From positions 1-64,000 of the forward strand of contig CAZFGR010000002.1 of assembly GCA_964518475.1 (NCBI GenBank): a stretch of 64,000 nucleotides of DNA, written 5' to 3'. Positions 3 to 22,141 of this stretch are shown piece after piece. A model generated the notes under the pieces. That model ran no database searches and was not told the DNA's origin. It worked only from the letters and a program-made list of their open reading frames with translations. Source of the DNA: an uncultured Nitrososphaerota archaeon (GTDB taxonomy: Archaea; Asgardarchaeota; Njordarchaeia; Njordarchaeales; Njordarchaeaceae). Both the position numbers and the translations under genes were made by a program. Numbering within the stretch: position 1 is the first letter of the stretch; the number at the start of each line of letters is the position of its first letter.

Positions 3-158
3 CAATGTGATATAATCGTTACAGCACCTGATCTAGCTAAGATTCTTAGATCTCAGGGGGCCTTTGCAAAAGAAATAGTAGAGGTAACGAACTACCTCAA
101 TAAGCAAGAGTTAAAAGAAAAACTAAAAGAGGCCATTGAAAGGGTTCTATCTAGTTAA
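3..158 (+). CDS. 3' end of a probable PTS EIIB component (UlaB/galactitol-ascorbate type), 5'-truncated by the window edge
   Basis: Manual translation of frame 3: QCDIIVTAPDLAKILRSQGAFAKEIVEVTNYLNKQELKEKLKEAIERVLSS*. This matches the DIIV..DLA...IV.V.NY...EL.EKL pattern of EIIB C-termini. HPr and EI genes are in the window. The phosphorylated Cys would lie upstream of the window. Confidence 0.65.
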   Translation, partial: QCDIIVTAPDLAKILRSQGAFAKEIVEVTNYLNKQELKEKLKEAIERVLSS

Positions 159-1037
159 ATCTTTGAGTATTCCAGCAATTTCTCCTTTTAGACTCTCTAT
201 TTCTTCTGTATTTAGAGATCTTAATGGTTTATTTACAATATTTTTTATCTGTAGCCCCCTAGTGCTTAGAGCTACTTTATACGAGGCTACGTATGGATAT
301 TTACCGAGAATTTCTTTCAATTTTAGTATTTTCTTGTAGATTTGATGTGCCTCAACAATTTTCTTTGATTGTAATAATTTGTACATTTGCACGAATAGTT
401 CTGGAACTATATTTGAGAGAGCTGATACAACACCTCTACAACCTATTATTAGTCCAGGAAGAGATAAAGTGTCCGAACCCATGAAAACCATAAAATTCTC
501 TATACTTAAGTATTTTAACGTATTTTTAAGATCACCACTACTATCTTTAATTCCTACTACATTGGACGATTTCCCAATAATTCTCCTTACTAATTCTGCT
601 CCGATGTTTATCCCTGTTCTTGAGGGAATGTTATATATAAAGAATGGAATATCGTGTAGGGATGAAACTTGTATGTAGTAATCTACTAAGGCCTCTTTGT
701 CATAAGGGTAGTATATTGGTGGAAAAGTCGCTACTGCATCGACGCCTAGATCTGCTGCATATGAGATTAGATCCATTACCTCCCTGATCCTAGCACTACC
801 TGCGTGAAAAATTGTGAAGGCTTTAGTACCAGCGAATTCTAATGTTTTTTCAAGTAGTTTTTTTCTAGTATCCAAGTTGAGTATTATACCCTCACCCATC
901 GTGCCACTTACAAAAAATCCATTTACTTCATGTTTTGTTTGGAAATGTATTAATTCCTCTAAAGCATCCACATCTAATTTATCTTGATCAGCTAGAGGTG
1001 TTACTATGGCTGTTATAACTCCCTTAAACTCAACCAT
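147..1037 (-). CDS. DHDPS/N-acetylneuraminate lyase family class I aldolase
   Basis: GVITAIVTP, GTMGEG, YNIP, Schiff-base GIKDSSG. Likely start is the ATG at 1037 (MVEFKG). Confidence 0.9.
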   Translation of the reverse strand: MVEFKGVITAIVTPLADQDKLDVDALEELIHFQTKHEVNGFFVSGTMGEGIILNLDTRKKLLEKTLEFAGTKAFTIFHAGSARIREVMDLISYAADLGVDAVATFPPIYYPYDKEALVDYYIQVSSLHDIPFFIYNIPSRTGINIGAELVRRIIGKSSNVVGIKDSSGDLKNTLKYLSIENFMVFMGSDTLSLPGLIIGCRGVVSALSNIVPELFVQMYKLLQSKKIVEAHQIYKKILKLKEILGKYPYVASYKVALSTRGLQIKNIVNKPLRSLNTEEIESLKGEIAGILKDLTR

Positions 1038-1782
1038 GTTTCTCCCTCTTCTTTTCAATGAATTCTAATCCCTTTCTCAACAATTCAACAATTTCATTTA
1101 TTATAACTTCCAGCATTTTTTCTCCTTTTTCTCTAGTTGCGACTGTCGGGTCCCCGATTACTCCGATATCTGTTAACTCATCCCACTTCTGAGGATAGAA
1201 TTCAAATATTTTCTTATCGGGGTAGCACGCTTTTGCTTTTGCCATGTCTACTAGGTCTGGTTTAATGTATAACATTAGGGATGTTTCTATTTCTTCTGCG
1301 TGGAAATAGTTTTTGTGCCACTGCTTAGAATCGCAAAATTCTCTAATCTTGGATAACCCTGAGGATGCAAAGTAGAAGACGTTGAGATCATAATTATCTT
1401 TCAGATATCTAGCTGTCTTTTTAATTACGGTCGCGTTTCCTATGTGGAAGCTTATGAATGCAAAATTTTTTGCCCCATGCTTATGTAAACTAAGACATAT
1501 ATCAACCAAAAATCTAAAAAGAGAATCCTCGGAAACGGTTAAAGATCCCGGAAAATTAATTAGTGACCAGACCTGGCCATATTTTATCACTGGTAGTACG
1601 ATGCCTCCTATTTTTTTAGCCACTTCTTCAGCAATTCGTTCGACTATGAAATTATCAGTACCTAGCGGTAGATGCGGTCCATGAGCTTCAATTGCTCCTA
1701 AGGGAATTATAACCACTTTGGCTTTTTCAAGGGCTTCCTTAGCTTCTACCCATGTCATCTCCTCAAGTCTTATTTTTTCCAT
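1030..1782 (-). CDS. Creatininase (creatinine amidohydrolase) family protein
   Basis: EAHGPHLPLGTD, FHIGN and HAEEIETS metal-binding motifs. ORF track start is 1794; MEKIRLEEMTW at 1782 is more likely. Confidence 0.9.
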   Translation of the reverse strand: MEKIRLEEMTWVEAKEALEKAKVVIIPLGAIEAHGPHLPLGTDNFIVERIAEEVAKKIGGIVLPVIKYGQVWSLINFPGSLTVSEDSLFRFLVDICLSLHKHGAKNFAFISFHIGNATVIKKTARYLKDNYDLNVFYFASSGLSKIREFCDSKQWHKNYFHAEEIETSLMLYIKPDLVDMAKAKACYPDKKIFEFYPQKWDELTDIGVIGDPTVATREKGEKMLEVIINEIVELLRKGLEFIEKKREKHG

Positions 1783-1787
1783 ATTCG

Positions 1788-2708
1788 TCACCAAGATAAG
1801 AACTGTTTAGGATTCTCAACAAATATTCGATCTATCATCTCCTGAGAAAATCCTTCCTCTTTTAATCTTTGAACATACTTGGTTGGTATATAGTCCAGCC
1901 CAGGGCCTCCGCCGTAGGATTTATAGTAAGAACGTCTAGCAGTATCACCAGAAATCATTATTTGATCGAGAAAACCTGCATTAATTAGCTTCTTAATCAT
2001 ATTTATTCTGGCCTCCTCTGGTCCATATTTTATTTTTCCGGTACAGTCATAGACTATGTATGCACCCTTCTCAAGTATTTTTCTTTGATACCAGAAATCT
2101 AAGTTATGATCCATATGATAGAACGCTACCTTTCCTAAATCGACTCCCTCTTCTAGTAGTATAACTATTTGTTCATGCGCCATTGTTCCAAGTGTCGTAT
2201 GGGAGACTATTGGAATTCCTAATTCAACATGTACTTTAGCGGCAGCTCGCATAGTTTTTTCCTCTACTTTCATTATGTAGTTGTAGCTTGTTCCTATTTT
2301 AAGCAACCCTGCTCTAGCATTAGTTCCATCCATGCCTTTTAATATATCCCCTTTGAGTAACTCTATAATAGAATCCATGCTAGCTTCATATACCCAAGGT
2401 TCATAGTAACTACCTAAGTTAAAACCCGTGACAGCGATAATATTTACTTCGGGGACTTTTTTCCCTATCTCAATTAGAGCCTTAGCGCTTCTTCCGTAAT
2501 CGATTGTTGTTGCATCAACAATTGTTTTTCCACCAGCTTTGAGGAAAAGTTTTAGTTCATTTGCGTTTTTTTCAATATCATCAAGTAAAAGATCAGGATC
2601 TTCCTTTATCTTCCATAGAGGTGGATGCGTGTATAAATGTTCATGAACCAAAGTGAATCCTATTTCATTGGGTGATATGTCGCGGAAAATAGTTCTGATT
2701 TTCGCCAT
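1788..2708 (-). CDS. Phosphotriesterase-family (Php/PTE-like lactonase) metallohydrolase
   Basis: TLVHEH, GGKTIVDAT, LLKIG (carbamylated Lys), SHT, YHMD, SGD. Confidence 0.9.
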   Translation of the reverse strand: MAKIRTIFRDISPNEIGFTLVHEHLYTHPPLWKIKEDPDLLLDDIEKNANELKLFLKAGGKTIVDATTIDYGRSAKALIEIGKKVPEVNIIAVTGFNLGSYYEPWVYEASMDSIIELLKGDILKGMDGTNARAGLLKIGTSYNYIMKVEEKTMRAAAKVHVELGIPIVSHTTLGTMAHEQIVILLEEGVDLGKVAFYHMDHNLDFWYQRKILEKGAYIVYDCTGKIKYGPEEARINMIKKLINAGFLDQIMISGDTARRSYYKSYGGGPGLDYIPTKYVQRLKEEGFSQEMIDRIFVENPKQFLSW

Positions 2709-2899
2709 TTTTATCACCAGTAACTATTAAAATGTTCTATAATCCACAATTCTTGCGCCAGGAAATACAATATTAGTCGTGCGACTATGAGGCATAAATC
2801 TTTTTCCCAAATATCTTTCGTATTATCATTCTTAAAAAATAATAAATACACTTTCTTAGAAATAGTTACCATAAACACTTTTTCAAATATGCGTTCTCA

Positions 2900-3793
2900 T
2901 TAAACAAATAAGAACTTGTTCCTTATTTTTCCTATTCTCTCAATGAATATTTCAACGACATCTCCATGCTTGAGTAACTTGGGCTTGGGTCGCCAGAAAT
3001 AACCCACACCAGCGGGGGTTCCAGTAGCTATTATATCGCCTGGCTCAAAAGTCATGCCTTTGCTAAGGATATGAATAATATCTGGAATCTTAAATATCAT
3101 TTTCAAAGTAGAAGAATCCTGACGAACCTCATCATTAACCTTAGTAATTATTCTTAATTCATGAGGATTCTGAATCTCGTCAGATGTCACTATCCATGGA
3201 CCTATGGGTGCGAATTTATCAAGACTCTTTCCTCTCGTCCATTGACCGTCTCTACGCTGAATATCGCGGGCCGTTACGTCATTAAACACTAAGTATCCAA
3301 AGACATAATTCATAGCCTCTTCTTTCGGAATTCTTTTTCCTTTGGTCCCAATGACAATAGCTAGCTCTCCCTCGTAATCCACTTGCTTTGTATAATCAGA
3401 AGGCACTTCAATATCCTCGAATGGATCAGCTATAGATGTTCTAGGCTTCATAAAAATAACTGGTTCTTGAGGAATAGTGCCACCGATTTCTTCTACATGA
3501 TCAAAGTAGTTGCATCCGAGACAAACTATTTTTGGTGGATTTTTTAGTGGAGCTAATAATTGTACATGACTTATCTCTATCCCCTTTTCCATAGATCTCT
3601 CTAATAAAGTATACTGATCCCTTATTTGGGGAAGATGATTCTCTTTAATGAACTCCTCGATAGTTTCTGGAAGCTCAATTCCTAATAATCTTGATACTAG
3701 ATCAGCCTCCAACACTCTATTCTGGATAACAAAGCCATAAGACTCAATACCATCATATAAAAAACGAGCAATCTTCAAAAGAAATCCCTCCAA
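2900..3793 (-). CDS. Fumarylacetoacetate hydrolase family protein
   Basis: CLGCNYFDH, DYEGELA, NDVTARD, GKSLD, GDIIATGTPAGVG. Confidence 0.92.
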   Translation of the reverse strand: MEGFLLKIARFLYDGIESYGFVIQNRVLEADLVSRLLGIELPETIEEFIKENHLPQIRDQYTLLERSMEKGIEISHVQLLAPLKNPPKIVCLGCNYFDHVEEIGGTIPQEPVIFMKPRTSIADPFEDIEVPSDYTKQVDYEGELAIVIGTKGKRIPKEEAMNYVFGYLVFNDVTARDIQRRDGQWTRGKSLDKFAPIGPWIVTSDEIQNPHELRIITKVNDEVRQDSSTLKMIFKIPDIIHILSKGMTFEPGDIIATGTPAGVGYFWRPKPKLLKHGDVVEIFIERIGKIRNKFLFV

Positions 3794-3822
3794 AAATTAT
3801 TAATAGTGTAGAAAGAGGAAGC

Positions 3823-4569
3823 CTATAAGTGCTTAATTCTATACTTATACTTCTCTATATACTTCTTATTATACTCGTCTCCACCCGGTACGTTCGCACT
3901 CAACCAAACTGGAGGCTCGATTCCTTCCTCCACAAGCATTTTGGCGGCTTCAACCATTATAGAATGGAGAATCGCTGAGTTAATAATTGTAGAAACGGGT
4001 GCAACCTTGGTTTTTATTCCTTCAACTTCTAGTAAAGCATCTCCTGGGGGAACATGATTATCTATAACTACATCCGCAACTTCGTATAGTCTCTTACCGG
4101 AGGGATGTCTTGAGGGGAACTTGCTCGAGAATTCTATGGAAGTAACCGCAACAACTTTTGATCCCCTTTCTCTAGCCCCCATAGCCATTTCAATTGGCAA
4201 AGAATTCCGACCAGAATTAGAAACTATGATTAATACGTCACCATTTCCGATGTCGTAATAATCTAGAAGAATCTTTGCATAGCCCTGTAATCTCTCAACC
4301 CCAGTACTCTTCATCGCACCTCCATAAACTGAAGATCCTATATCGAGGATAGCGTTTATAGGTACGAGACCACCGGCTCTGTAGAATACCTCTATTGCCA
4401 AGACTTGGGAGTGGCCTGTGCCATAGACGTGAACCAATTTATCATTTTTGAGAGCTTCTTTAACAAGTTCGGCTGCTTTGAGAATATTCTCTTTCTCAGC
4501 TTCCCTAACTTTATTTAATAATGAGATAACCCCATCAAAATACTTGTCAATTAACAAATTAATCACCAT
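3823..4569 (-). CDS. SIS-domain phosphosugar-binding/isomerase protein (UPF0309-like)
   Basis: GTGHS, FYRAGGL, SNSGRN, DVVIDN..P.GDA, S.N.PGGD motifs. Confidence 0.85.
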   Translation of the reverse strand: MVINLLIDKYFDGVISLLNKVREAEKENILKAAELVKEALKNDKLVHVYGTGHSQVLAIEVFYRAGGLVPINAILDIGSSVYGGAMKSTGVERLQGYAKILLDYYDIGNGDVLIIVSNSGRNSLPIEMAMGARERGSKVVAVTSIEFSSKFPSRHPSGKRLYEVADVVIDNHVPPGDALLEVEGIKTKVAPVSTIINSAILHSIMVEAAKMLVEEGIEPPVWLSANVPGGDEYNKKYIEKYKYRIKHL

Positions 4570-4648
4570 AACATTTTTACATGAAAGATATCGTTACTCT
4601 ATCTCTTTTAAAGCTTTTACTAATATATTGTAGATCTCGTCGGGTGTT

Positions 4649-5134
4649 TTGGCATCTCTAATTATTTACGATATTTATAAGGAAAGAAGAATGCTTCGAG
4701 ATCTTCGAAATAATCGAACCGAGTATACTGCGTTAATAGCTGAGGCTTTAAGAGAAGCACGCATACCTGATAAAGCAGGTCTTAGTAAAGAAGATGCGGA
4801 AAAACTTGTGTCCTCGCTAAAGCAGCTCCCCCAAATCGATATTGTTAAAAAGACGATAACTGCATTAAACATTTATGCCAGCTACTTAGAGGAGCATCCA
4901 GAGGTTCTTAAAGACACAAAAACCGTGCGGGAAAAGATAATAATTCCCATTATGAGAAATTTCTTATACATATTCGCAATCGCTGACAGCGAACTTTATG
5001 ACTTAGTTGAGAAAACTCAGGAATACTATGTAAAGAGAGGGTTTAAGCAAAAAGTCTTTATTCCAAAATTATTAGAGGCTGTAATTGATAAAGCCCTAAG
5101 TAGGCACCATTCAAGCCCCAATCTTGAGCCTTAA
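4649..5134 (+). CDS. Hypothetical helical protein, first gene of the HPr unit
   Basis: 161-aa ORF (alternative ATG at 4691), divergent from the SIS gene and directly upstream of HPr. No motif recognised. Confidence 0.6.
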   Translation: MASLIIYDIYKERRMLRDLRNNRTEYTALIAEALREARIPDKAGLSKEDAEKLVSSLKQLPQIDIVKKTITALNIYASYLEEHPEVLKDTKTVREKIIIPIMRNFLYIFAIADSELYDLVEKTQEYYVKRGFKQKVFIPKLLEAVIDKALSRHHSSPNLEP

Positions 5135-5168
5135 CAAGTCATTATTTTTCCATAAGGAGGTTAGGAGT

Positions 5169-5450
5169 ATGAATGATGAAAAAATTGCTGAGGCGAGAGT
5201 AAAAGTACTTAACAAAGTCGGTTTACATGCTCGTCCAGCTGTAGAGTTTGTTAAGACTGCTAAGAAATTCAAATCAAAAATTACTGTCTGTAAGGATGGG
5301 GAATGCGGTGATGCAAAAACCTTGTTACAAGTACTAGCTCTCGATGTTCAATGTGGCGATGAGATCCTAATAAGAGCTGAGGGGGAGGACGCTAAGGAAG
5401 CTATTAATGCTCTAGTAACCCTAATAGAGAATAAGTTCGGTGAGGAGTAG
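5169..5450 (+). CDS. ptsH: PTS phosphocarrier HPr
   Basis: NKVGLHARPA with active-site His; DAKT region; AEGEDAKEAINAL. AGGAGG/AGGAG SD precedes the ATG at 5169. Confidence 0.93.
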   Translation: MNDEKIAEARVKVLNKVGLHARPAVEFVKTAKKFKSKITVCKDGECGDAKTLLQVLALDVQCGDEILIRAEGEDAKEAINALVTLIENKFGEE

Positions 5451-5465
5451 AAGGTGAACTAAGTA

Positions 5466-6695
5466 ATGACGAAAAGTATCTCTTTTATTGACGAGAAAAG
5501 AGAGGAAATACTTACAGTCCTTAAAGATCTCATAAAGGCCCGTACCGAGAATCCTCCGGGAGATACTAGTGAAGGAATAAAAGTAATAGGAAAAGTTCTT
5601 GAGAAGTATGGCATAGATTACAGAATTGTTGAACCATCTTCTGGAAAAATGAATCTAATTGCTGAGCTAGGCGATGGGGAACCTGTTCTTATCTTAAATG
5701 GTCACGTAGACGTTGTCCCAGCTGGTGATGGATGGAGTGTAGATCCATTCTCTGGTATTGTAGAAGGAGATAAAATATATGGTCGCGGAAGCTCTGATAT
5801 GAAAAGTGGTGTAATAGCTCTTCTCTACGCTTTTCTGGCCCATAGAGATATCAGAAATGGAAAACTAGTTCTAACAATCGTCGCTGATGAAGAAACGGGA
5901 GGACGAGAAGGTACGAAATATCTCCTAGAGAATAAACTAGTTCACGGTGACGCATGCCTAATCGCAGAGCCCTCTGGAAGATTAGGGCCCCACGTCTACG
6001 ACATAGTGGCGGGAGAAAAGGGCGCTCTATGGTTAAAAGTACGAACGAGCGGGAAAGCGGCCCACGGTAGTCTTCCTATGTTAGGGGATAACGCTATTAA
6101 GAAAATGGCTAAAATAGTCACAGAGCTTCCAATGCTGATACCTATCAAATCTGGAATTCCCGAGAACGCAAAAACCTTAATCGAACATGGTAAAGAGGCA
6201 TTAAAAAGTGCTCATCCAGAAGCTCCCAAAGCTCTAGATCACTTGACAATTAATGTAGGAACAATAAAAGGTGGAAAGAAAACAAATATAGTGGCTGATG
6301 ATTGCGAAATTACCCTCGATATTCGAGTCCCAATAAGTTTAAGCACCGATACAGCCCTCAGAGAAGTAGAGAAAATAATCAGGCAAAATCTTTGCAATGA
6401 TGTTGATTTAGAGGTTATCGATAGGATCGAACCTTCTTATACTCCTGCTAATCATTCCTTCACCAAGATAGTTAGGGAAGTCGCTAAGAAGTACCTTGGG
6501 TATGAACCATTAACAATTTGCATGGCAGCTACGTCTGATGCGAGAATATTCAGGCACCATAATATACCAACAATAAACTTCGGTCCAGGTTATCTAGAGA
6601 AAGCTCATACTAAGGATGAATTCGTGTACCTCAATGATGTGTTCCTATTCGCTAAAATCTATGTTGAAATAATAGAGAGATTCCTAAAACATTAA
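5466..6695 (+). CDS. M20 family (ArgE/DapE-like) metalloamidohydrolase
   Basis: NGHVDVVP, GRGSSDMKSG, DEETGG, EP, GKAAHGS, AHTKDE. Confidence 0.92.
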   Translation: MTKSISFIDEKREEILTVLKDLIKARTENPPGDTSEGIKVIGKVLEKYGIDYRIVEPSSGKMNLIAELGDGEPVLILNGHVDVVPAGDGWSVDPFSGIVEGDKIYGRGSSDMKSGVIALLYAFLAHRDIRNGKLVLTIVADEETGGREGTKYLLENKLVHGDACLIAEPSGRLGPHVYDIVAGEKGALWLKVRTSGKAAHGSLPMLGDNAIKKMAKIVTELPMLIPIKSGIPENAKTLIEHGKEALKSAHPEAPKALDHLTINVGTIKGGKKTNIVADDCEITLDIRVPISLSTDTALREVEKIIRQNLCNDVDLEVIDRIEPSYTPANHSFTKIVREVAKKYLGYEPLTICMAATSDARIFRHHNIPTINFGPGYLEKAHTKDEFVYLNDVFLFAKIYVEIIERFLKH

Positions 6696-6913
6696 GCAAT
6701 AAGTTAGCGCAAAACCCCTTATTAAACGTTTTTTATCCTAGCTGATTCTAAAGATATCGATCTCAGATAAGGAGCCTGTATTACAATTCGATATTTCCCA
6801 AAAAGTTATTGCTGAGTGGGTTAAAGTCTTACATTTTTAAAAGTTCTCAGTTAATAGTACATTATCTTGAAAAATAAGAGAAATATAAACAATTAACTTT
6901 GAGGAGGATATGA

Positions 6914-7057
6914 ATGAAGGTACAATGTGCTTATTGTGGAAAAGAACTTGATGAGAAAAATGCTATTAAGTTAAAAATTAGGGGAGAAGTGAAATTCTTC
7001 TGCAACGAAGATCATTTAGAGAGATATCTTGGAAAGAAGCTTGGGCCTTCGTGCTAG
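6914..7057 (+). CDS. Small TRASH/YHS-like metal-binding protein (47 aa)
   Basis: Manual translation MKVQCAYCGKELDEKNAIKLKIRGEVKFFCNEDHLERYLGKKLGPSC*. CxxC...FCxxxH pattern; GAGGAGG SD upstream. Below the ORF track length cutoff. Confidence 0.8.
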   Translation: MKVQCAYCGKELDEKNAIKLKIRGEVKFFCNEDHLERYLGKKLGPSC

Positions 7058-7161
7058 TCATCTATAACCTTTCTCTCTTCTTTAATTTTTGTTTCTGAGA
7101 AATATTCTCGGCCTAAATAGTTACGTAATTCTCGGGCTTACTCATTAGTTTCTTGTTCGTA

Positions 7162-7935
7162 TTATTTCTGGCAGTTTGGGCAAAAGAATGTTCTTCTATT
7201 ATTTGGTTCCTGTCTATAGTATCTTATTTTCTCTCCACAAACTGGGCAAGGTTTTCCCGATTTATTATAAACGAAGAGTATAGGTCCTATCCTCTCGCCA
7301 CGAAGCCTTCTTTGGAGAAATTCCTCAGAGAGCTCCTTAGCTATACGTACTATATTCCTTATTTCTTCATATGATAGATCCTTCACTAGTCTCTCTGGAT
7401 GAACTCTTGCTCGAAACAAGATCTCGTTTCTGAGGATGTTTCCTATTCCAGCAATCACTCCTTGATCCAGTAAAACATCTCCTATTTTCCGATTCTTGTG
7501 TTTCAGAATAAGCTTCACCGCTCTACTAAAGTTCCAGTCTTTTCTTAGAGGATCTTCTCCAAGACTATTCTTAAGCTCCTCTATGATCCTGTGTTTATAG
7601 TTTATCTCAATAATAGGCGCGTTGTAGACCACAACCTTCTTATCACTAAAATATAGTGCGAGCCTAACTAATCTCTCTGGCTTAGCCAGCGGCTCATTAA
7701 TACCGTAGATATGTATTGTCCCATACAGCATTAGGTGTACCCTAATGGCAAAAGAATCGAAGAATAATAAAATGTTCTTTCCCCAAGCATCAGTAGCCTC
7801 TAATCTCTTCCCAGTAATATATTGAGGATCCACCAAGACCCTTTTACTCCTAACAAGGATATTCTCGAGAACCTTTGCACCGACTTCTTGATAGATTCTC
7901 AAAGCCTTATAGTGTGCACTAGGTCCTTCAGTCAC
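7162..7935 (-). CDS. Fpg/Nei family DNA glycosylase/AP lyase
   Basis: N-terminal (M)TEGP, GKNILL, HL..YG, H2TH motif LLDQGVIAGIGNILRNEILF, C-terminal zinc finger CPVC...R...CPNCQ. Confidence 0.9.
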   Translation of the reverse strand: MTEGPSAHYKALRIYQEVGAKVLENILVRSKRVLVDPQYITGKRLEATDAWGKNILLFFDSFAIRVHLMLYGTIHIYGINEPLAKPERLVRLALYFSDKKVVVYNAPIIEINYKHRIIEELKNSLGEDPLRKDWNFSRAVKLILKHKNRKIGDVLLDQGVIAGIGNILRNEILFRARVHPERLVKDLSYEEIRNIVRIAKELSEEFLQRRLRGERIGPILFVYNKSGKPCPVCGEKIRYYRQEPNNRRTFFCPNCQK

Positions 7936-8134
7936 AGCCCATTGCCTCTTTAAATAGTTCGATAATTTAGGAAAGGTAAGTTATTTTGTTAGAACATCTT
8001 TTTAATGCTTTATAAATCCTTGTTAGAACCACGGATTCTAGATCATTTGAAACAGAGATTTTATCAAACAAACGAAGAATCTTTGAAGTAAAACCCGACC
8101 TATTATTATTCCACCCAAATCATAATCCGGCTGG

Positions 8135-8662: not shown

Positions 8663-9035
8663 AGCTCTTCCCTACTTCTAGGATTTTTCTCTAGTTTCTC
8701 ACATAGAAAAATGGCTTTTTTGCGTTATTAAATATTCTTCTAAAATAGCTCAACCTCTTTTTCTTACCTCTCAATATGATTATATTCTAAGACAGACATC
8801 AACGATTAAGGTGTAATAGTTGCTTTCCAGTTTGATTTGACTTATGATCTTATTATTTTGTTTAAGTTAGGAGAAAAGGAATCGCACTAATTAGGCATTA
8901 TTTGATGAGCTATAGAAAACTGTAGTAGTGTTATAATTTCCTATAACTATTAATTATATGCTTTTATAAGAGAACGTTTAAAAAGACCCTATTCCCTAGT
9001 TTTATGATTGAAAATTCCACAAAGGTGTTTAATAA

Positions 9036-10424: not shown

Positions 10425-10547
10425 AACTTTTTCTACTCCTTTTTTATTATTTTTCCCCTTTTCTCATTTTGAATAGAGATGACATTTCACTTAACTCCTA
10501 GAGACAAAAGAAATTGTGTTGAAGACATTGAATAACCTTGTCACTCG

Positions 10548-14697: not shown

Positions 14698-14851
14698 TCT
14701 CCTTATCCCTATTCTCTAATAACTCCATTTTTTTACTCAAAAACAGAAAAAGAGAGGCAATATCCCTTCTCGTTTCTTTTTATATAATGAGAAGTTTGTC
14801 AGCGAAGCTCAGCTTCATCATTGATCAGAGGTGCTTGGGGCTCATCATCCG

Positions 14852-15586
14852 CTACTTCATTAGTTCTTTTACTATTTCTATTATCTCCTCTAGATTACTT
14901 ATTATGTAGTCTGGTTTTAACTCTTTAGGCACTCCTAAACATTCGAAATTGATTTTGTACTCTCTATATACTGGTTCTGGTTTGCTTAATAGGACTCCGA
15001 TCATACCGATTCTTTTCGCTCCATAGATATCTATTTCTAAAACATCACCGACAAAGATTGATTTTTGAGGCTCTGTATTTAGCCTCCTTATCATTTCCCA
15101 ATAAATTATTGGATGTGGTTTCCTATACCCGATTTCACGGGATAAGACTACCGCATCAATGTATTTGATCAATGATTTCTTCTCTAGAAGTCTTCTTACA
15201 AGGAAAAGTGAAGTATTGGATAATACTCCAATTTTCAGACCCATTTCCTTAAGCGTCATGAGAACTTTTTTAGCCTCTGGTTTTAGGTTGTGTAGTTCGG
15301 CATCACTAACCTCTAGCATCGCTTGGTACGCTACCTCGTCGGGAATCTCTATGCCTAATCTCCTAAAACTCTCCTTGATTATTTCCTCAAAAGGAATTTC
15401 ACGCTGGGAACACGTAGATTCTCTCAAACATTCTCCTATAACATCATTCAAGATTTTTGGGAATTCTGGAGGTGTTGAAATATTGTAGTTGAGGAGCTTC
15501 TTTGCAATAATATTAGAGATCATTTTAATGTCCCATTTCGGCCAAGCCAGTACTCCACCGAAGTCAAAAATTATCGAATCAATCAC
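14852..15586 (-). CDS. HAD-superfamily hydrolase
   Basis: FDFGGVL, LSNT, RKPHP, FVGD...DIYGA. Confidence 0.9.
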   Translation of the reverse strand: MIDSIIFDFGGVLAWPKWDIKMISNIIAKKLLNYNISTPPEFPKILNDVIGECLRESTCSQREIPFEEIIKESFRRLGIEIPDEVAYQAMLEVSDAELHNLKPEAKKVLMTLKEMGLKIGVLSNTSLFLVRRLLEKKSLIKYIDAVVLSREIGYRKPHPIIYWEMIRRLNTEPQKSIFVGDVLEIDIYGAKRIGMIGVLLSKPEPVYREYKINFECLGVPKELKPDYIISNLEEIIEIVKELMK

Positions 15587-15609
15587 TTTAGCTCCCCTTA
15601 ATATTAATC

Positions 15610-16473
15610 CTACGCAATTGAATAATGTTCATGCTTCCAGAAGGATAATAACCGGGATATTTGCGCTCTTCGCAGTTTTTCCGGTCTCTTAACCATTTTA
15701 GTAGCTTGATTTGGACAGTTCAGTACACAGGCACCACATCCATAGCATGATAAATAATCAATTTTCGCCTTACCATCGACAATTCGACGAGCCTCGAATT
15801 GGCAGACCTCTACACAGATTCCGCATCCCTGGCATTTATTCGGATCTACATAAGCCACGTAATCCCCTGGATCAAATACGTGCAAACCAACTATTCTCTG
15901 AGCGAGGATAGGAATGCAGGAATGTTTGCAACAATGACATATGACGAATGATGTAAATGATCCACCAGCTATGCAGAATGCATAAACCATTGAGACAAGA
16001 CCACTCTTGTTCAACTGCTTCACAAGTTTCTTGGCTTCGGACTTAGTGATTAATTTATAGTCCTCTGGGAAGAAACTCTTGTAAATTATGGCTCCTGTCT
16101 TTATTGTCATATCTGTTTCTATTGGACAATCGCATGCCTTAGTAGCTACTCTACACCTACAACTACCTACGGAAATAGCTACGTTATCTGGTAACTCATC
16201 AATGTACTTCTCTACTTCCTTGTATGTCATTACTTTTCCATGCTGGCCAAGTCCTAACATTAATGCAGAGTTTAGAAGGATTACTGGGTATATCAGTAAC
16301 CTCCCAATTCTATTCTTGTAGGGACCTTTAAGGATAAGGTAATTAAGTTTAAGATACGGTATTTCGAAGCGTGCATAGAGCATGAGAGCGATTTTTCGCA
16401 AAATGCTTTTTTCAGTAGGCTTAAAATGTAGCAACCCCAAACAAACACCCACACACAAGTTTAATACTCGCAT
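15610..16473 (-). CDS. 2x[4Fe-4S] ferredoxin-domain protein
   Basis: CQGCGICVEVC and CYGCGACVLNCP, plus CRCR and CHCCKHSC clusters. Start uncertain. Confidence 0.85.
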   Translation of the reverse strand: MRVLNLCVGVCLGLLHFKPTEKSILRKIALMLYARFEIPYLKLNYLILKGPYKNRIGRLLIYPVILLNSALMLGLGQHGKVMTYKEVEKYIDELPDNVAISVGSCRCRVATKACDCPIETDMTIKTGAIIYKSFFPEDYKLITKSEAKKLVKQLNKSGLVSMVYAFCIAGGSFTSFVICHCCKHSCIPILAQRIVGLHVFDPGDYVAYVDPNKCQGCGICVEVCQFEARRIVDGKAKIDYLSCYGCGACVLNCPNQATKMVKRPEKLRRAQISRLLSFWKHEHYSIA

Positions 16474-16587
16474 CCGACCATTTATATTGAGTAGGTAGGA
16501 CTTTACGGATTCGTAGTAGTCTTGTTGATAATTTCTATAAATGTTTTACTGCTTTATGCTATATTGTCTAGCTCTTATAAGTTGGTG

Positions 16588-17424
16588 ATGCATGTGCCTA
16601 TAGTATTTGCTGGTATTGCTCCTCATGGAGATGAGATTATTCCCGTTCTCCATAGAGTTATTGATGAGGAAAGTAAGAAACTAATGGATGCGATGATTAA
16701 GTTTGCAGAGGAACTTGTTAGAAGAGATCCCGAGACAATAATAATAGCTACACCCCACAACCTGAGAATAACGCATCACATAGGCGTGATTATGACTTCT
16801 TACGGCGAGGGAGAATTCAGGACTGAGTATGGATCAATCCATATTAGGGTTCCTTGTAACCAAGAACTTGCCAAAGAGATCTATGAGGAGGCAAATAGAG
16901 CAGGCCTCCCTGTTGTTGGGGTTAATTACGGAGTTGCTAGTGGAGACCTCTCCACAATATCTTTGGATTGGGGAGCACTGATTCCGTTATGGTTCATAAA
17001 GGAAGAATATGAGAGATGGAATCGAAAATTGCCACCCATAATAGTTGTGACGCCCTCACGGGAAGTTCCACGTGAAGAATTGGTTAGATTCGGAGAAGTA
17101 ATCGTAGACGTTGTGGAGAGAAGAAATATTAGGGTAGCATTTATTGCTAGTGCGGATCATGCACATACTCATGATCCTCGAGGTCCTTATGGTTTTGATG
17201 AAAATGCAAGAATATTTGATACAAAACTAGTCTCGATAATCCAAGAGAATAAATTAGAGGAACTATTAAAGATTCCTCAAGAAATGATAGAACGGGCCAA
17301 GCCGGATAGCGTATGGCAACTCTTGATCCTCCATGGAGTATTGAAAAAGACCTCGTTAAGACTCCAAACTCTCACGTATGCTTGTCCAACCTATTTTGGA
17401 ATGCTGGTAGCGTATTATCTCTAA
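16588..17424 (+). CDS. LigB/Memo-like (class III extradiol dioxygenase fold) protein
   Basis: APHG, ATPHN, LDWGALIPLWF, IASADHAHTH..GPYG, YFGM. Start at 16588 follows a GGTG SD. Confidence 0.8.
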   Translation: MHVPIVFAGIAPHGDEIIPVLHRVIDEESKKLMDAMIKFAEELVRRDPETIIIATPHNLRITHHIGVIMTSYGEGEFRTEYGSIHIRVPCNQELAKEIYEEANRAGLPVVGVNYGVASGDLSTISLDWGALIPLWFIKEEYERWNRKLPPIIVVTPSREVPREELVRFGEVIVDVVERRNIRVAFIASADHAHTHDPRGPYGFDENARIFDTKLVSIIQENKLEELLKIPQEMIERAKPDSVWQLLILHGVLKKTSLRLQTLTYACPTYFGMLVAYYL

Positions 17425-17452
17425 AGAAAAGTGGAAAAGTGTTTTTTGCCAA

Positions 17453-17947
17453 TTATCTCTTTATTATCCTAATTATTATCCTAATAATGTATAGTGGTAC
17501 CGCGACTAGAAATCCTACTATGCAGATTTCGTAAATGGTTACTGATGGAAGCATATTGAGGAATGGATTAGTTAGAATTGGATATAGAGGCTTCATTTCG
17601 GGGTATAGAAACATATCAAGAATTACATGGCTATATGTGCCTATGAGGGAGGAGACTAAAATTTTTCTAAAACTCGTTGATTGCTCAAGCTTGAAAAGCT
17701 TTACTAGCCATAAGTAGTATCTCCTAAGTGGATAGAGAATTATCGATAAAAACACACCAGCTACTGTTGCTCCAAGGAAGGTGTGAAAGAGTCCATGGTA
17801 AGGTCCCTTATACGTGAATAAGAGATAGTATAGAGGCTCTAAATCGAGAATAACAGAGCCTAGGCAGAGAGCAAAAATGTCTAGGAATGGGAAAAATAAT
17901 AGCCCTATAAGAAGTGCAGGGCCTAGATGAAATGGTGTGAATGGCAT
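17453..17947 (-). CDS. Membrane-bound metal-dependent hydrolase (YdjM/DUF4184-like)
   Basis: MPFTPFH, DLEP, HGLFHT, SHVILD with hydrophobic helices. Confidence 0.8.
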   Translation of the reverse strand: MPFTPFHLGPALLIGLLFFPFLDIFALCLGSVILDLEPLYYLLFTYKGPYHGLFHTFLGATVAGVFLSIILYPLRRYYLWLVKLFKLEQSTSFRKILVSSLIGTYSHVILDMFLYPEMKPLYPILTNPFLNMLPSVTIYEICIVGFLVAVPLYIIRIIIRIIKR

Positions 17948-17960
17948 TTCTTAATCACCT

Positions 17961-18908
17961 CTATATTCCTTCTCTTAGGATTTTTCTCATTCTATCACCT
18001 ATACTGGAATAAATTCTTGACAAGATCTCAAATTCTTTTGGATCATAAAATCTGCATCTTCCCTCTGTGAACTCCTTCGCAACCTCTACACAGAAAGCTG
18101 TTGCTCTCTCTAGCCCAATGATGTAGTTAGCGCTTGTTGCGCAACCAGCTACTGGAATTTGAGTAGTGGTAGCGACCCCCACTACTGGGGAGCTGGTCAT
18201 TAGCCATGGGAGCATTATAGTGTTTATGTGGTAGACATCGACGTTAAAGGGTGTAATATCCTGCATCGTAATTGGAACAATTGCCGCGGGTCGACCCATT
18301 ACTCTTTCGTATATGTTTATTAGATCATCACTAACTTTCAACACTATTCCATCCTTTACCGTTGGGGTAATTGCGAAACCGTCTACCTTAATCACCCTAT
18401 TTGCTTTCGTGGCATCAATGGATAGGATAGCGTCCATAGCTGGATCTACTTCATGTTCTAGAATAGTTAACATATCCACTGGAGAACCTACAAAAGGAGC
18501 TGGTTCATGAGGAATGACCGGTGCTCTCGGACATATATGAGTGGTAACAATTACATCTCCCGATAAACTGTCTCCCCTCATCCGCATTTCCCACAACTTC
18601 AGGGCCGTTGCAAGAGCAATTATCGCCCCATCGGCATCCGAGACTAATCCCTTATACTTCGGTCTCGCCCCGATCCCACCTAACCTACCGATGACTCCTA
18701 GAGTAGGCGCTTTACCTCCAGAGAATTTTCCATTATCTCCAGGAATCATGATCTTTATGAAATCAGTAGTGCCCTTCCTACCCTCTAACGTCTTAAGCTC
18801 TATTTCGAACAATCCTTTAGACTCGAAGAATTTCTTAACCTTGGAACCGTTTATTCTAGAATCATCCAACAAGTCGATGATTTCAAGAACTTGTTTCAAA
18901 CAAGACAA
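17961..18908 (-). CDS. DUF1177 family protein
   Basis: TDF.K..IPG, APTLGVIGRLGGIGARP, GLVSDADGA, THICP, MDAILSIDATK, HINTI, FYD..EF. Confidence 0.8.
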   Translation of the reverse strand: MSCLKQVLEIIDLLDDSRINGSKVKKFFESKGLFEIELKTLEGRKGTTDFIKIMIPGDNGKFSGGKAPTLGVIGRLGGIGARPKYKGLVSDADGAIIALATALKLWEMRMRGDSLSGDVIVTTHICPRAPVIPHEPAPFVGSPVDMLTILEHEVDPAMDAILSIDATKANRVIKVDGFAITPTVKDGIVLKVSDDLINIYERVMGRPAAIVPITMQDITPFNVDVYHINTIMLPWLMTSSPVVGVATTTQIPVAGCATSANYIIGLERATAFCVEVAKEFTEGRCRFYDPKEFEILSRIYSSIGDRMRKILREGI

Positions 18909-19050
18909 AGTAAAGCACCAATACTGACTCCATCTAGTAAATTATTCCATAATATAATATATAATTAATAATAAAAGGATACCTTCGAGTCCCAGAACGA
19001 TGAAAGGCATTTTGATTAAATCCGCTTTAAAGCATCTTCTCTTTTCTGAT

Positions 19051-20202
19051 TTATTCTTTAACTGGTTTGAGAATCTCACTTGTGTGGAGTCGTTGATCAT
19101 GATTAATAGTTATTCCCAACATGCCCTCTTCTAATCCTTTAAGAAACTTTTTGATGTATCTCTTGTCAGCGCCTAGTCTCTTTAGTAAGTTTACTATATC
19201 TTTTTTCCTAATTATCTCGCGATTTGTTGCATATTTGATTATATGCTCTATTGTTGGCAAGTATCTTCCTTTTAGGTCGAGTCCGCTACATCTATAGGTA
19301 TGTAGCTCAAAGAACCCTTCTTTACAAGTCCCGAAAGTCATTCCTAAGCGTCTGGCTTTTTCTGCACAATACTTTGCAAGTTTATACCGGTATTCCCTCG
19401 GTGGTATTAGGTAGCCAGCAGCGTCCAGTTCTCCGCTGAGAATATATAGTTTCAAAAACTCGTCTAGGCATCCAATTCTATCTAGTGCGTACACCATATT
19501 ATCTAAAACCGTTTCTGAGAGTTTTAGTGTGCCATAGATTATGTGACTTGTACCAACTGTTGCTAGAGCTTCTAGTAATTCCTCCAATTCTTCCATATCA
19601 TCATTGACATATGGTATTACAGGCTGTATTCTCCCGATAACTCTGATACCATTCTCCACTAGTTCCTCAATAGCTTCTAGTCTCTTCTCTGGTGGCGGAG
19701 TTTTCCCCTCGAATAATGCAGTAATCCTTCGGTTAAGTGATATAAAGGATACATGCACACATACTAACTTTTTCTCACGAAGTTCTTTTAATAAGTCGAG
19801 ATCTCTAAGAACGAGGTCTGATTTAGTCACGATGAATACAGGGGCTTTGTGTTTAAGAAAGATTTTGAGGGTTTTTCTGGTTATCTCTAGATTCTTCTCG
19901 ATTGGTTGGTACGGATCCGTTGCCGAGCCTAGATCAACTGGTTGGAGATTTCTAGCTCTTTTGAGTCGAGCTAACTCTTTATCGATTCTTTCTGGAGCAT
20001 TTATCCTCGCCATTATTATGCGGTGGTATTCTGGATAAATAGCTCTAGCGAAACAGTAAGTGCACGCGAATTCGCATCCTAAATAGAGATTAGCTACTAA
20101 TCTATGGGGACAGTAACGAAAAACTTCCCATGATCTATCTATGGGGTGAATAATTTTTCTGCTTTGAGTCGCTACAACAATAGTCTTTTCTTGATTATTC
20201 AT
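19051..20202 (-). CDS. Radical SAM protein, SplB/Rv2578c-like family
   Basis: GCEFACTYCFA (CxxxCxxC), SATDPYQPIE, TKSDLVLRDLD. Confidence 0.85.
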   Translation of the reverse strand: MNNQEKTIVVATQSRKIIHPIDRSWEVFRYCPHRLVANLYLGCEFACTYCFARAIYPEYHRIIMARINAPERIDKELARLKRARNLQPVDLGSATDPYQPIEKNLEITRKTLKIFLKHKAPVFIVTKSDLVLRDLDLLKELREKKLVCVHVSFISLNRRITALFEGKTPPPEKRLEAIEELVENGIRVIGRIQPVIPYVNDDMEELEELLEALATVGTSHIIYGTLKLSETVLDNMVYALDRIGCLDEFLKLYILSGELDAAGYLIPPREYRYKLAKYCAEKARRLGMTFGTCKEGFFELHTYRCSGLDLKGRYLPTIEHIIKYATNREIIRKKDIVNLLKRLGADKRYIKKFLKGLEEGMLGITINHDQRLHTSEILKPVKE

Positions 20203-20410
20203 GTTGGCTCCCTATTAATCTTGATCCAAATTTTTTCTGCTGTTAGCTGAAAAAAGATCTGTTTCGTGGAATTTCTGCCTAGATCTGCATGTTGTGATAC
20301 TCTGTTGATTATCCTTTAAAACAGATCTAAAATTGTTTAAACCTGTTTAGGCAATTGATTTAAAAATGTTTAATAACCTCTCTACAAGTTGGGATATTAG
20401 GGTGATAACT

Positions 20411-22141
20411 ATGAAAAAAGTTCTTAAGGGTTCTGGCGTCTACCCAGATATTGGCATTGGGGAAGCTATTGTTTTGAGAAAGTATGAGATAGATGACTTA
20501 GTTAATATGTTGCGGGGAACTAAGGTTTCTCTCGAAGATTTCGAGAGAGCATTGGAGGCTGCTAAGAATGAGATATCAGAACTCATGACTCGATTGGAGA
20601 AGGTTGCTGGCAAGGATGTTCTGGAGCTCATGGAGTTTCAATTAATGATTCTTGAAGAAGACTCATTCACTGGGAGAATACGCGAACTCATAAAAGAAGG
20701 TATTCATCCCGCGGATGCTATCAAGCAGGTAATGGAGGAGGTTAGTGAGATCTTCCGACGTTCAGAGAGCGTATATATGCGGCAGAGAGTTAGTGATATC
20801 CAAGATTTGTGTATTAGATTACTGAAGAAGCTAGCGGGTCTTGAGGAGACTGAAGTCAAGAAGAAAGGAATAATCATTGCTCCAGAACTTCATCCTAGCG
20901 AGGTTCTTTACTTAGCAGATAAAATGGTTGGACTCGTTACTCAATATGGTACTGCTCTTTCCCACTTTGCAATAATAGCAAGAAGTTTAAGAATTCCAAC
21001 AGTGGTGAAGGTGAAAGATGCTTTAAGAGAAATAAGAGACGGTGATGTATTAGTTGTGAATGGGTTAAATGGTACAGTAATTATTAATCCTCCAGAGAAG
21101 GAACTGGAAGAGATCAAGAGAGCTAAAGAAGAATGGAGCAAGCTACTTCATGAAATAATTGAGAAGACAAAAGAACCTGCTATAATGAAGGATGGTGAGA
21201 CAAGAGTATTTGTTGTAGCTAATATTGGTAAAGAAGACGAGGCTGAAACTGCGGCTCATTATGGGGCTGAGGGAATAGGCCTATTTAGAACAGAGTTTTA
21301 CTTCCTTGGAAGAAATGAGCCACCAAGTGAGGATGAGCAGTTTCGAGCATATAAGTTTGTGGCTCAGCGATTATCTCCTCACCTAGTAATAATTAGGACT
21401 CTCGATATAGGCTCTGACAAGCCTATACCCTATATCCCGATGCATCATGAGCCGAATCCAGCGCTTGGTAAGAGAGCTATTAGACTGTATTGGAAAGAAC
21501 TTTGCGAAATAATACGTGCGCAATTCAGAGCAATTCTACGGGCGGCGAACCACGGAAATGTCGGTATTATGTTACCGATGGTTGCTGATGTTACGGAAGT
21601 AATTAAGGCTAGGGAATTCCTCGAAGAGCTGATTAATGAGCTAAAGAAAGAAGGAGTAAGTTTCGGTAATGTGAAATATGGGATAATGGTCGAGATTCCC
21701 TCAGCAGCATTACTTGCTGAAAAGTTCGCGAATTATGTAGATTTCATGAGTATTGGTACTAATGATTTAACTCAATATACACTCGCGATAGATAGAGCTG
21801 GGCTTGAGTGTCCAGAATTCTTTGATCATCTCCATCCAGCTGTTTTAAAACTGATAAAAAACGTTGTCGAAGCAACCAAGAATACTAACGTCGAAGTAAG
21901 TGTTTGTGGAGAAAGCGCTTCTGATATTTACGCTGTCCCTGTATTAATAGGTTTGGGAGTAAGGAAATTAAGTGTAACACCCTCTATGATTCCCATAATA
22001 AAGCACGTCATAAGACAATTATCTCCCGAAGAAGTTGAGAAACTTGCCGAAGAGGCATTAAGAGCATCCACACCACAAGAAGTTAGAGCTATTGTAAAGG
22101 AATTCTACGATAAGAAAGGTTTGAGACTACCAATAATGTAG
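20411..22141 (+). CDS. ptsI: PTS Enzyme I (PEP-protein phosphotransferase)
   Basis: LSHFAIIARS (phospho-His), GIGLFRTEF, RTLDIGSDK, EPNPALG.RAIR, MVEIPSA, SIGTNDLTQY, VCGE. GGTGA SD precedes the ATG at 20411. Confidence 0.95.
   Translation: MKKVLKGSGVYPDIGIGEAIVLRKYEIDDLVNMLRGTKVSLEDFERALEAAKNEISELMTRLEKVAGKDVLELMEFQLMILEEDSFTGRIRELIKEGIHPADAIKQVMEEVSEIFRRSESVYMRQRVSDIQDLCIRLLKKLAGLEETEVKKKGIIIAPELHPSEVLYLADKMVGLVTQYGTALSHFAIIARSLRIPTVVKVKDALREIRDGDVLVVNGLNGTVIINPPEKELEEIKRAKEEWSKLLHEIIEKTKEPAIMKDGETRVFVVANIGKEDEAETAAHYGAEGIGLFRTEFYFLGRNEPPSEDEQFRAYKFVAQRLSPHLVIIRTLDIGSDKPIPYIPMHHEPNPALGKRAIRLYWKELCEIIRAQFRAILRAANHGNVGIMLPMVADVTEVIKAREFLEELINELKKEGVSFGNVKYGIMVEIPSAALLAEKFANYVDFMSIGTNDLTQYTLAIDRAGLECPEFFDHLHPAVLKLIKNVVEATKNTNVEVSVCGESASDIYAVPVLIGLGVRKLSVTPSMIPIIKHVIRQLSPEEVEKLAEEALRASTPQEVRAIVKEFYDKKGLRLPIM

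Follow-up and report, generated by a model that had tools for sequence, protein, structure and literature searches.

Does a non-halophilic archaeon encode a complete bacterial-type phosphoenolpyruvate (PEP):sugar phosphotransferase system (PTS) together with catabolic genes of its own, and what would such a system take up? The question is raised by 64,000 nucleotides (the window) from a metagenome-assembled genome (MAG) of an uncultured heat-vent Asgard archaeon of the Njord group (GenBank assembly GCA_964518475.1, contig CAZFGR010000002.1), where an initial annotation had placed such a system at 3-22141. All of the genes that it named were found at their places by Pfam and NCBIfam matches, and we consider it probable that the locus encodes a complete PTS joined to a catabolic module, in which a lactone would be taken up as its phosphate, opened, dehydrated, and aldol-cleaved. 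We judged this reading as a whole: the PTS would have a single permease, with an enzyme II (EII) C component of the ascorbate/galactitol (GAT) superfamily, and the locus would be the archaeal form of a widespread Bacillota operon without a solved physiological substrate.

The window runs from base 1 of its contig (C2; 107.7 kb) and therefore opens at a contig end, and the MAG (G000) consists of 121 contigs with an estimated completeness of 91% and contamination of 5.8%. Genes were called from the open reading frame listing and from Pfam and NCBIfam scans. The features of the system in the window and on two further contigs (C23 and C73) were as follows.

3-158, plus strand: EIIB, C-terminal 51 codons (Lac/Cel/Ula-type fold), near-identical to the C terminus of the C73 IIB
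147-1058, minus strand: dihydrodipicolinate synthase (DHDPS)/NAL-family class I pyruvate aldolase (PF00701, 216 bits)
1030-1794, minus strand: creatininase-family metal hydrolase (PF02633, 232 bits), overlapping both adjoining genes
1788-2717, minus strand: phosphotriesterase (PTE)-family protein, predicted phospho-sugar lactonase of the Lmo2620 type (cog1735; PTE family, 202 bits)
2900-3793, minus strand: fumarylacetoacetate hydrolase (FAH)-family protein of hydrolase, decarboxylase, or hydratase type (PF01557 FAA_hydrolase, 261 bits)
3823-4569, minus strand: SIS_2/UPF0309 protein of the NagS family (PF13580, 153 bits; PRK02947, 329 bits)
4649-5134, plus strand: small four-helix-bundle protein of 161 aa with no Pfam or NCBIfam match
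5169-5450, plus strand: HPr phosphocarrier (PF00381 PTS-HPr, 98 bits; His-15 motif GLHARP)
5466-6695, plus strand: M20 deacylase of the ArgE/DapE family (TIGR01910, 306 bits), 16 bp past HPr
20411-22141, plus strand: enzyme I (EI), the PEP-protein phosphotransferase (TIGR01417, 535 bits against a cut-off of 342)
C23:1056-1514, minus strand: EIIA_2 (137 bits; phospho-His motif GIAFPH), the sole EIIA in the genome
C23:2-139, minus strand: EIIC-GAT, first 46 codons, running off the C23 end
C73 (4457 bp, ~4.5 kb): whole EIIC-GAT (430 aa, 249 bits) and PTS_IIB

Both general proteins were as first described, HPr with its histidine intact and EI at full length, and each is encoded by a single gene in the whole genome. 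The true start of HPr is at 5169 within a longer frame (5124-5450, plus strand), and a longer EI frame opens at 20366 (plus strand). The phospho-His motif (LSH) and the Cys motif (CGE) of EI are both intact, and the three EI domains (PF05524, PF00391, and PF02896) are recorded for an identical protein cluster. At a candidate regulatory position the window HPr (5169-5450) reads AKT; this is presumably where bacterial HPr has its regulatory Ser-46 (KS), here replaced by Thr.

The EII components lie across an assembly break. By itself, the frame at 3-158 gave only a weak match to UlaBC (E value of 0.0035); it corresponds to the C-terminal half of the C73 IIB, a protein of 100 aa with a PF02302 PTS_IIB match (45 bits) and the Cys motif VCGLGTG, which bears out the EIIB-like tail that the initial annotation had reported. 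The tail is 80% identical to the IIB of a sister species (G004), again a 100-aa protein with VCGLGTG, and the N-terminal half with the active-site Cys falls outside the end of C2. C73 aligns to C2:1-2826 at 93% identity and to C23:1-141 at 91%, which makes it a close variant, binned together with them, that spans the break between C2 and C23. Read across this bridge, the EII genes would follow the order EIIA, small protein, and EIIC start on C23 (reverse complement), a gap of about 1.4 kb, and the EIIB tail on C2. G004 carries EIIC-IIB and then, on the opposite strand, DHDPS-creatininase-PTE on one contig (C148), which is an independent confirmation of the gene arrangement in the window and physically joins the PTS to the catabolic module, as had been claimed. 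The MAG contains sequence from two close populations, and it is precisely at the EIIC-IIB genes that its assembly broke.

Across C2, C23, C73, and G004, the motif and domain matches thus identify EI with three domains and its His and Cys, HPr with its His, and EIIA, EIIB, and EIIC with their phospho-sites, in line with the claim of a complete bacterial-type PTS in a non-halophilic archaeon. The components expected upstream of the window were also found, EIIA and the EIIC start on C23 and a whole EIIC with a Cys-bearing IIB on C73. EII permease genes in the genome were confined to the GAT-type EIIC/EIIB locus (its own copy at the break and the C73 variant). With one EI, one HPr, one EIIA, and only this EIIC locus, the general proteins would therefore serve one permease. 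A whole-genome search found neither DhaK (Dak1) nor a Glc/Fru-type EIIC, and we consequently rejected the reading in which EI and HPr feed a dihydroxyacetone kinase or another EII. Sister genomes contain further GAT-type EIIC genes (G004:C210, G005:C13, and G005:C169) with no BLAST similarity (E value of 1e-3) to the PTE-linked EIIC; therefore, the genus holds more than one GAT-family PTS.

The module has clear bacterial counterparts. We took the 80 best PTE loci, one genome per species, from the PTE homologue alignment and typed their neighbours by BLASTP. A creatininase gene adjoined PTE in 74 loci, a GAT-type EIIC was present in 68, the full co-directional string EIIA-IIB-EIIC-PTE-creatininase-SIS in 60, and a PRD/Mga-type activator with IIB and IIA domains in 59. 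The hosts were mostly Bacillota (Listeria, Geobacillus, Paenibacillus, Neobacillus, Enterococcus, and Thermoanaerobacteraceae), with HPr-EI added in the Paenibacillus loci. These counts agree with the earlier statement that such genes accompany an ascorbate-family PTS of unsolved substrate in Firmicutes; they contradict its description of the system as undescribed, since the EIIABC-PTE-creatininase-SIS core is common in Bacillota. In Listeria the operon is presumably lmo2646-lmo2652, and our search of the open literature on the function of the Listeria genes found transcriptomic mentions only.

All six families of the Bacillota operon occur on C23 together with C2, and also on G004:C148, with 41 to 50% identity for PTE and 40 to 47% for EIIA and IIB. 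The window-type EIIC groups with the PTE-operon EIICs in one clade (SH-aLRT support of 95), and the phosphate-site residues of the lactonase are kept; the window PTE groups not with the Bacillota operon clade but in a separate one that is rich in archaea. The Njord locus departs from the Bacillota operon in gene order, regulation, aldolase type, and added genes. Njord genomes have EIIC-IIB where Bacillota have IIB-EIIC, and the five tightly packed genes at 147-4569 on the minus strand (SIS <- FAH <- PTE <- creatininase <- DHDPS aldolase) converge with the EII genes, whereas a divergent operon at 4649-6695 on the plus strand carries the small protein, HPr, and the M20 deacylase, so that the genes are convergent and divergent and not one co-directional operon. 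A PRD/Mga-type activator was not found among the locus genes scanned. The Njord aldolase is DHDPS-type and the Bacillota one PF07071, and genes for FAH, for M20, and, in duplicate, for a lineage-specific small protein are additional to the Njord locus, with HPr nearby and EI 15 kb off.

The aldolase comparison extends to other lineages. PF07071 ("KDGP aldolase") lies between creatininase and SIS in 17 operons (Listeria, Geobacillus, Neobacillus, and others), an Eda-type 2-keto-3-deoxy-6-phosphogluconate (KDPG) aldolase occurs in five loci (one from Bathyarchaeota and four more), and the DHDPS type was in the module in two Njord genomes, at the window's locus and in G004. The use of three unrelated pyruvate aldolases in one module speaks for a 2-keto-3-deoxy-(phospho)aldonate as the end product. 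Additionally, 8 of the 12 PTS-less loci carry an FGGY sugar kinase, which argues that phosphorylation is needed whatever the entry route of the substrate; one such locus also has an enolase-superfamily dehydratase. In Hungatella/Lachnospiraceae loci, an M20 gene follows PTE-creatininase-FGGY, together with a GntR/UTRA regulator, a monosaccharide-type ABC transporter, and a D-serine-dehydratase-like pyridoxal phosphate (PLP) enzyme. In a Bathyarchaeota MAG (G400) the PTE-creatininase pair is accompanied by a two-domain SIS, an Eda aldolase, and two 2-hydroxyacid dehydrogenases, and a separate contig encodes a very bacterial-like EI (700 bits) that adjoins HPr and an M20 gene.

The conserved residues of the window enzymes indicate which reactions they may catalyze. 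For PTE, the closest solved relative is 3PNZ (Lmo2620, a Listeria "phosphotriesterase family protein"; 267 bits). The metal ligands H25, H27, K140, H173, H201, and D258 are invariant in the PTE homologue alignment, and K228, K230, R261, and Y264 align to K242, K244, R275, and Y278 of 3PNZ, which we take to be its distal phosphate site. Xiang and colleagues are said to have reported in 2012 that Lmo2620 hydrolyses pentonolactone-5-phosphates in vitro. The SIS_2 protein matches NagS (SCO4393 of Streptomyces, 9EOL) with 174 bits as a member of the same SIS_2/UPF0309 family, and the residues H53, S54, R64, E94, D179, and N228 are kept, with Thr for S91. NagS, the one characterised member of UPF0309, is an N-acetylglucosamine 6-phosphate (GlcNAc-6P) 2,3-dehydratase whose active site binds 6-phosphogluconate (PMC12680351). 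Since its catalytic residues are kept, we propose that the window SIS_2 protein is a phospho-sugar-acid dehydratase and that "isomerase" is probably the wrong word. Thus, of the pathway first proposed for the locus, hydrolysis of a phospho-lactone followed by aldol cleavage remains the best reading, while the isomerisation is more likely a dehydration.

For the DHDPS-type protein, the dapA model TIGR00674 scored 194.3 bits, below its cut-off of 206.15, and no DapB was found in the 91%-complete genome (best dapB match of 42.6 bits against a cut-off of 122). On these two results we rejected DapA and lysine biosynthesis for this gene, except as part of an alternative weighed below. Its gene overlaps that of the creatininase-family protein and holds the same position in G004, and we propose that it is a 2-keto-3-deoxy-phospho-aldonate aldolase. 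The creatininase-family protein would be an amide or ring hydrolase acting on a phosphorylated intermediate, and the M20 protein is a possible N-deacylase of the pathway. FAH was listed as a module gene at the outset; its membership is doubtful, as the gene is absent at the G004 locus and present in 1 of the 80 related loci.

In the proposed pathway, a sugar-acid lactone would be imported and phosphorylated by transfer from PEP through EI, HPr, EIIA, and EIIB, a relay for which the phospho-sites are all present. The Lmo2620-type PTE would then open the phospho-lactone, an activity known in vitro for its family, and the NagS-like SIS_2 and the creatininase-family hydrolase would turn the phospho-aldonate into a 2-keto-3-deoxy-phospho-aldonate. 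Finally, the DHDPS-type class I aldolase would cleave this to pyruvate and a phospho-aldehyde, e.g., glyceraldehyde-3-phosphate, a step that we infer because PF07071 and Eda aldolases take its place by non-orthologous displacement in other lineages.

Several points weigh against this reading. The window's own EIIC and EIIB N terminus are unassembled and are read from the 93%-identical variant and the sister species, and for all of the archaeal components the support comes from sequence. No aldolase lies within 10 kb in 48 of the 68 PTS-type bacterial loci. The DHDPS-type protein has a DapA-like YNIPSRTG motif and falls just 12 bits under the dapA cut-off, so that a biosynthetic role is possible, and it is 60% identical between G000 and G004 where its neighbours are 80 to 86% identical. 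The creatininase-family enzyme has no assigned step of its own. If pentonolactone-5-phosphates were the substrates, the 2-keto-3-deoxy product would yield glycolaldehyde phosphate and not glyceraldehyde-3-phosphate. Lastly, the NagS study found true activity only in Streptomycetaceae and none on GlcNAc-6P for homologues from Clostridium and Paenibacillus (PMC12680351); the window SIS substrate must therefore differ from that of NagS, and orthology is doubtful.

Much of this would also fit a narrower unit made up of only the PTS, PTE, creatininase, and SIS, with the DHDPS-type, FAH, and M20 genes as chance neighbours in biosynthetic or peptide roles and the phosphorylated product leaving elsewhere, e.g., to the pentose phosphates, the route taken in the Ula pathway for ascorbate. 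We regard this as unlikely, although it is the strongest of the alternatives: the 48 aldolase-free loci, the missing FAH gene in G004, a DHDPS score near that of the dapA model (194 versus 206 bits), a DapE-like M20 protein, and the C5 lactones reported as in vitro substrates of Lmo2620 all agree with it. It does not account for the overlap of the DHDPS and creatininase genes and their same position in G004, for the lack of a detected DapB, or for the recruitment of two other unrelated pyruvate aldolases into the same module, and the UlaD, UlaE, and UlaF families that would serve such an exit were not found among the locus genes. Utilisation of ascorbate itself by an Ula/Sga-like PTS is very improbable. 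Ascorbate is a lactone, the EIIC is of the GAT superfamily, and the weak NCBIfam match of the IIB tail is to an ascorbate IIBC; however, the lactonase is PTE-type and the EIIC clusters with those of the PTE operons. The ascorbate Ula pathway was rejected after a UlaG-type metallo-beta-lactamase lactonase, UlaD, UlaE, and UlaF were not found among the locus genes with Pfam and NCBIfam.

We give equally little weight to a regulatory phosphorelay of the PTS-Ntr kind. The distance of 15 kb between EI and the EII genes and the Thr at the HPr position that presumably corresponds to regulatory Ser46 would suit such a role, but a full-length membrane EIIC with a cognate IIB occurs in both the variant contig and the sister species, the locus is embedded in catabolic genes, and no other EII or DhaK target was found in the genome. 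Least probable of all is that the PTS genes are bacterial contamination that entered the archaeal MAG by mis-binning or by chimeric assembly. PTS are mainly bacterial, the MAG has 5.8% estimated contamination, 121 contigs, and a co-binned variant contig, and a published survey had no PTS protein in Asgard MAGs (PMC7997004). Against this stand the position of the genes on a 107.7-kb contig, whose composition is even along the window, and the presence of EI in six of seven independently assembled MAGs of the genus and in NCBI Njordarchaeales records, one of which has EI and a small-protein homologue ten accessions apart. Moreover, the Njord EIs form a clade of their own and share no more than ~43% identity with the bacterial EIs listed, members of a lineage-specific gene family are interspersed among the PTS operon genes, and an archaeal PaREP1 gene lies between HPr and EI. 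The even composition, the recurrence of EI in the genus, and relatives named as Njord archaea thus make a chimeric or bacterial contig very unlikely. In sum, a full-length IIB matches PTS_IIB, EIIA and EIIC exist in the genome, and independent MAGs of the genus repeat the genes, which together argue for the complete PTS with its catabolic module.

The substrate can be narrowed tentatively. A plain aldonolactone is somewhat more likely than an N-acyl-aminoaldonate or its lactone, for which the hints are suggestive and which we rate as a minor possibility. These hints are that the creatininase family comprises amide and ring hydrolases (NCBIfam matches), that an M20 deacylase gene lies behind HPr and also occurs in Hungatella-type loci, and that a two-domain SIS accompanies the module or the PTS in Bathyarchaeota, in an Asgard genome of another family (G040), and in Thermofilaceae-like genomes; related two-domain SIS enzymes are, we assume, amino-sugar deaminases. 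More speculatively still, Njord archaea may have a PTS-coupled Entner-Doudoroff-like path for an oxidised amino sugar (such as an N-acetyl-hexosaminic acid or the corresponding lactone, released by the oxidative breakdown of chitin or cell walls), with the small protein as a new PTS accessory. The NagS-like SIS would then dehydrate an N-acyl-aminoaldonate-6-phosphate after lactone opening, a creatininase-family or M20 amidase would free the acyl-amine to give KDPG for the aldolase, and the membrane-anchored four-helix protein would be a new archaeal PTS accessory component. A proven analogue is known for N-acetyl-gluconic-acid-amine (GlcNAc1A): this product of oxidative chitin cleavage is deacetylated, deaminated to 2-keto-3-deoxygluconate (KDG), phosphorylated, and then cleaved by an aldolase (PMC9537276). 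If true, the amino-sugar reading would also give a substrate to the orphan Listeria/Bacillus operon.

The small protein at 4649-5134 belongs to a family (unk161) that is nearly restricted to this lineage. A 180-aa paralogue lies on C23 between EIIA and EIIC; the two are 27% identical in a five-sequence alignment and 31% identical over a local match of 96 residues. Only 17 members turned up in a profile search of 1.8 billion representative proteins, and among 400 genomes of the phylum (Asgard) the family occurred in all seven genus members and G040 only. Two copies lie within PTS loci of G000, and PTS loci of G004, G005 (where the copy follows EIIC, HPr, and an FGGY kinase), and G040 also contain the family; further copies, e.g., on G000:C7, lie amid unrelated genes. 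The homologues open with a hydrophobic (membrane) helix, which is kept in a 79%-identical homologue (P0122) and the paralogues. In the window (4631-4651) an in-frame TAG stands directly 5' of the small protein and most of the N-terminal hydrophobic helix is gone; the window copy may be a truncated or leaderless variant. The predicted fold is a helical bundle (pLDDT of 91) with generic bundle matches only, and a Foldseek search of the PDB with the model returned nothing at an E value of <=0.001. An HPt-like phosphotransfer role was considered for the protein, but CheA P1/HPt domains gave Z scores of 6.5 to 7.4, within the chance range for helical bundles, and in the 17-sequence alignment the sole invariant column is a Pro, with no conserved His column. 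Our guess is that the protein is a scaffold or regulator of the archaeal PTS.

In six of the seven genus members EI scored above the family cut-off. It did so in 15 of the 400 Asgard genomes sampled (the window's genus and four other families) and in 15 of 401 sampled genomes of Thermoproteota, the phylum of the Bathyarchaeota MAG. The Njord system is not unique among non-halophilic archaea, as Thermofilaceae-like genomes carry SIS_2-HPr-EI. The host assignment agrees with the names of related records: a contig of G004 is titled "Promethearchaeati archaeon", and EI relatives are named "Candidatus Njordarchaeia archaeon" or "Candidatus Njordarchaeales archaeon". In the NCBI Njordarchaeales MAG with EI and the unk161 homologue ten accession numbers apart, the longest contig for both clusters is 20,707 bp, which suggests that the two share a contig, mirroring the spacing in the window. 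The EI trees, which include no haloarchaeal EI, came from quick searches, are unrooted, were made without mixture models, and contain long branches, so that their deep order is provisional. In them, Njord EIs formed one 19-row clade (SH-aLRT support of 99) that includes G040, 12 Thermoproteota EIs (several from single-contig genomes) were its neighbours (support of 91), and other Asgard EIs branched separately among bacterial sequences. Among the matches listed, the closest bacterial EIs (~40 to 43% identical) were from thermophilic Clostridia, Thermoanaerobacterales, Caldicellulosiruptor, Synergistota, and Caldisericum.

Within the one genus of the Genome Taxonomy Database (GTDB), EIs are 55 to 74% identical between members. 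PTE and EIIC are 86% identical between G000 and G004, yet their EIs fall in different subclades. This discordance and the nesting of G040 inside the clade suggest, on tree and identity evidence, that PTS parts were exchanged among Njord-group archaea. In G040 the row of genes is SIS_2, EIIA, EI, HPr, EIIC, IIB, and small protein, after which come a HAD hydrolase and a two-domain SIS. The Thermofilaceae-like genomes have EI and HPr beside a SIS_2 51 to 53% identical to that of the window, with a two-domain SIS nearby, and the NagS-like SIS_2 is therefore the most constant partner of these archaeal PTS sets.

Compared with known systems, this Thermofilaceae-like PTS of Thermoproteota is the nearest in being archaeal and non-halophilic, with an HPr 53 to 58% identical to that of the window, SIS_2 beside the general PTS proteins as in G040, and an adjacent EI clade. 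In contrast, its EI is just 32 to 38% identical, and its loci are without the small-protein family and without a DHDPS or creatininase gene. The window query found no PTE in five Thermofilaceae-like genomes, and EIIC-GAT was present in two of the five. Thermofilum pendens has been cited as an archaeal PTS exception (PMC2797409). The fructose PTS of Haloferax volcanii (Pickl et al. 2012, cited in PMC7997004) is likewise a bacterial-type EI/HPr/EII phosphorelay acquired from bacteria by an archaeon, but it differs in EII family, substrate, and downstream pathway, which has a fructose-1-phosphate kinase and a class II aldolase. The aldolase family of the 17 related operons, PF07071, is that of DgaF. 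The D-glucosaminate pathway of Salmonella consists of the PTS DgaABCD, the ammonia-lyase DgaE, and the KDGP aldolase DgaF. Like the OngB/OngC/KdgK pathway of Pseudoalteromonas (PMC9537276), it leads from a sugar acid to 2-keto-3-deoxy-(6-phospho)gluconate and an aldolase, as we propose here. Unlike the Njord module, these pathways use a Man-type PTS or an SSS transporter, PLP lyases, and a D-aminoacylase, with no lactonase step described.

The remainder of the span first assigned to the system does not belong to it. The ~14 kb at 6.7-20.4 kb encode Fpg/Nei, PaREP1/HEPN, an HTH protein, H+-PPase, HAD, ferredoxin, LigB, DUF1177, and radical SAM proteins, which are unrelated to the PTS pathway; the functional unit is therefore in two pieces and not a single 22-kb block. 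Upstream of EI and divergent from it, the DUF1177 protein (411 bits) adjoins the radical SAM enzyme (17961-20202, minus strand). Just past EI lie two tandem TldD/PmbA-type metalloprotease gene pairs (22625-25500 and 29511-32365, plus strand), with an S9-type peptidase (25516-27396) between them. Farther on, a PurT (formate-dependent glycinamide ribonucleotide transformylase) frame of 507 aa (51288-52811, plus strand) matches models of ~390 positions in two stretches apart from each other; this split points to an insertion of ~100 aa or a wrongly set start. No tRNA was found in the window, and a scan of 1-7200 for promoters and terminators with bacterial models gave matches at chance level only.

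The PTS and the operon type are of known kinds, and the host lineage is new within the searchable literature. No PTS protein at all was found when the transporters of Asgard archaea were surveyed (PMC7997004), and the first description of Njordarchaeota, as peptide and amino-acid fermenters with no complete glycolysis, does not mention a PTS (bioRxiv 10.1101/2021.04.02.438162); automatic annotation at NCBI already names the Njord EI genes. As far as sequence comparison goes, what is new here is the set of three unrelated aldolases in the module, the FGGY kinase in place of the PTS, and the NagS residues in the SIS gene. In the samples searched, most members of the Njord genus have the complete PTS with its own catabolic module; therefore, these lineages probably import a derivative of a carbohydrate by group translocation, and their metabolic reconstruction changes accordingly. 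For the orphan operon of Listeria, Enterococcus, Geobacillus, and Paenibacillus, whose lactonase structure is solved, the comparison offers a concrete candidate pathway, supported by the three non-homologous aldolases, the alternation of PTS and FGGY kinase, and the NagS-type dehydratase.

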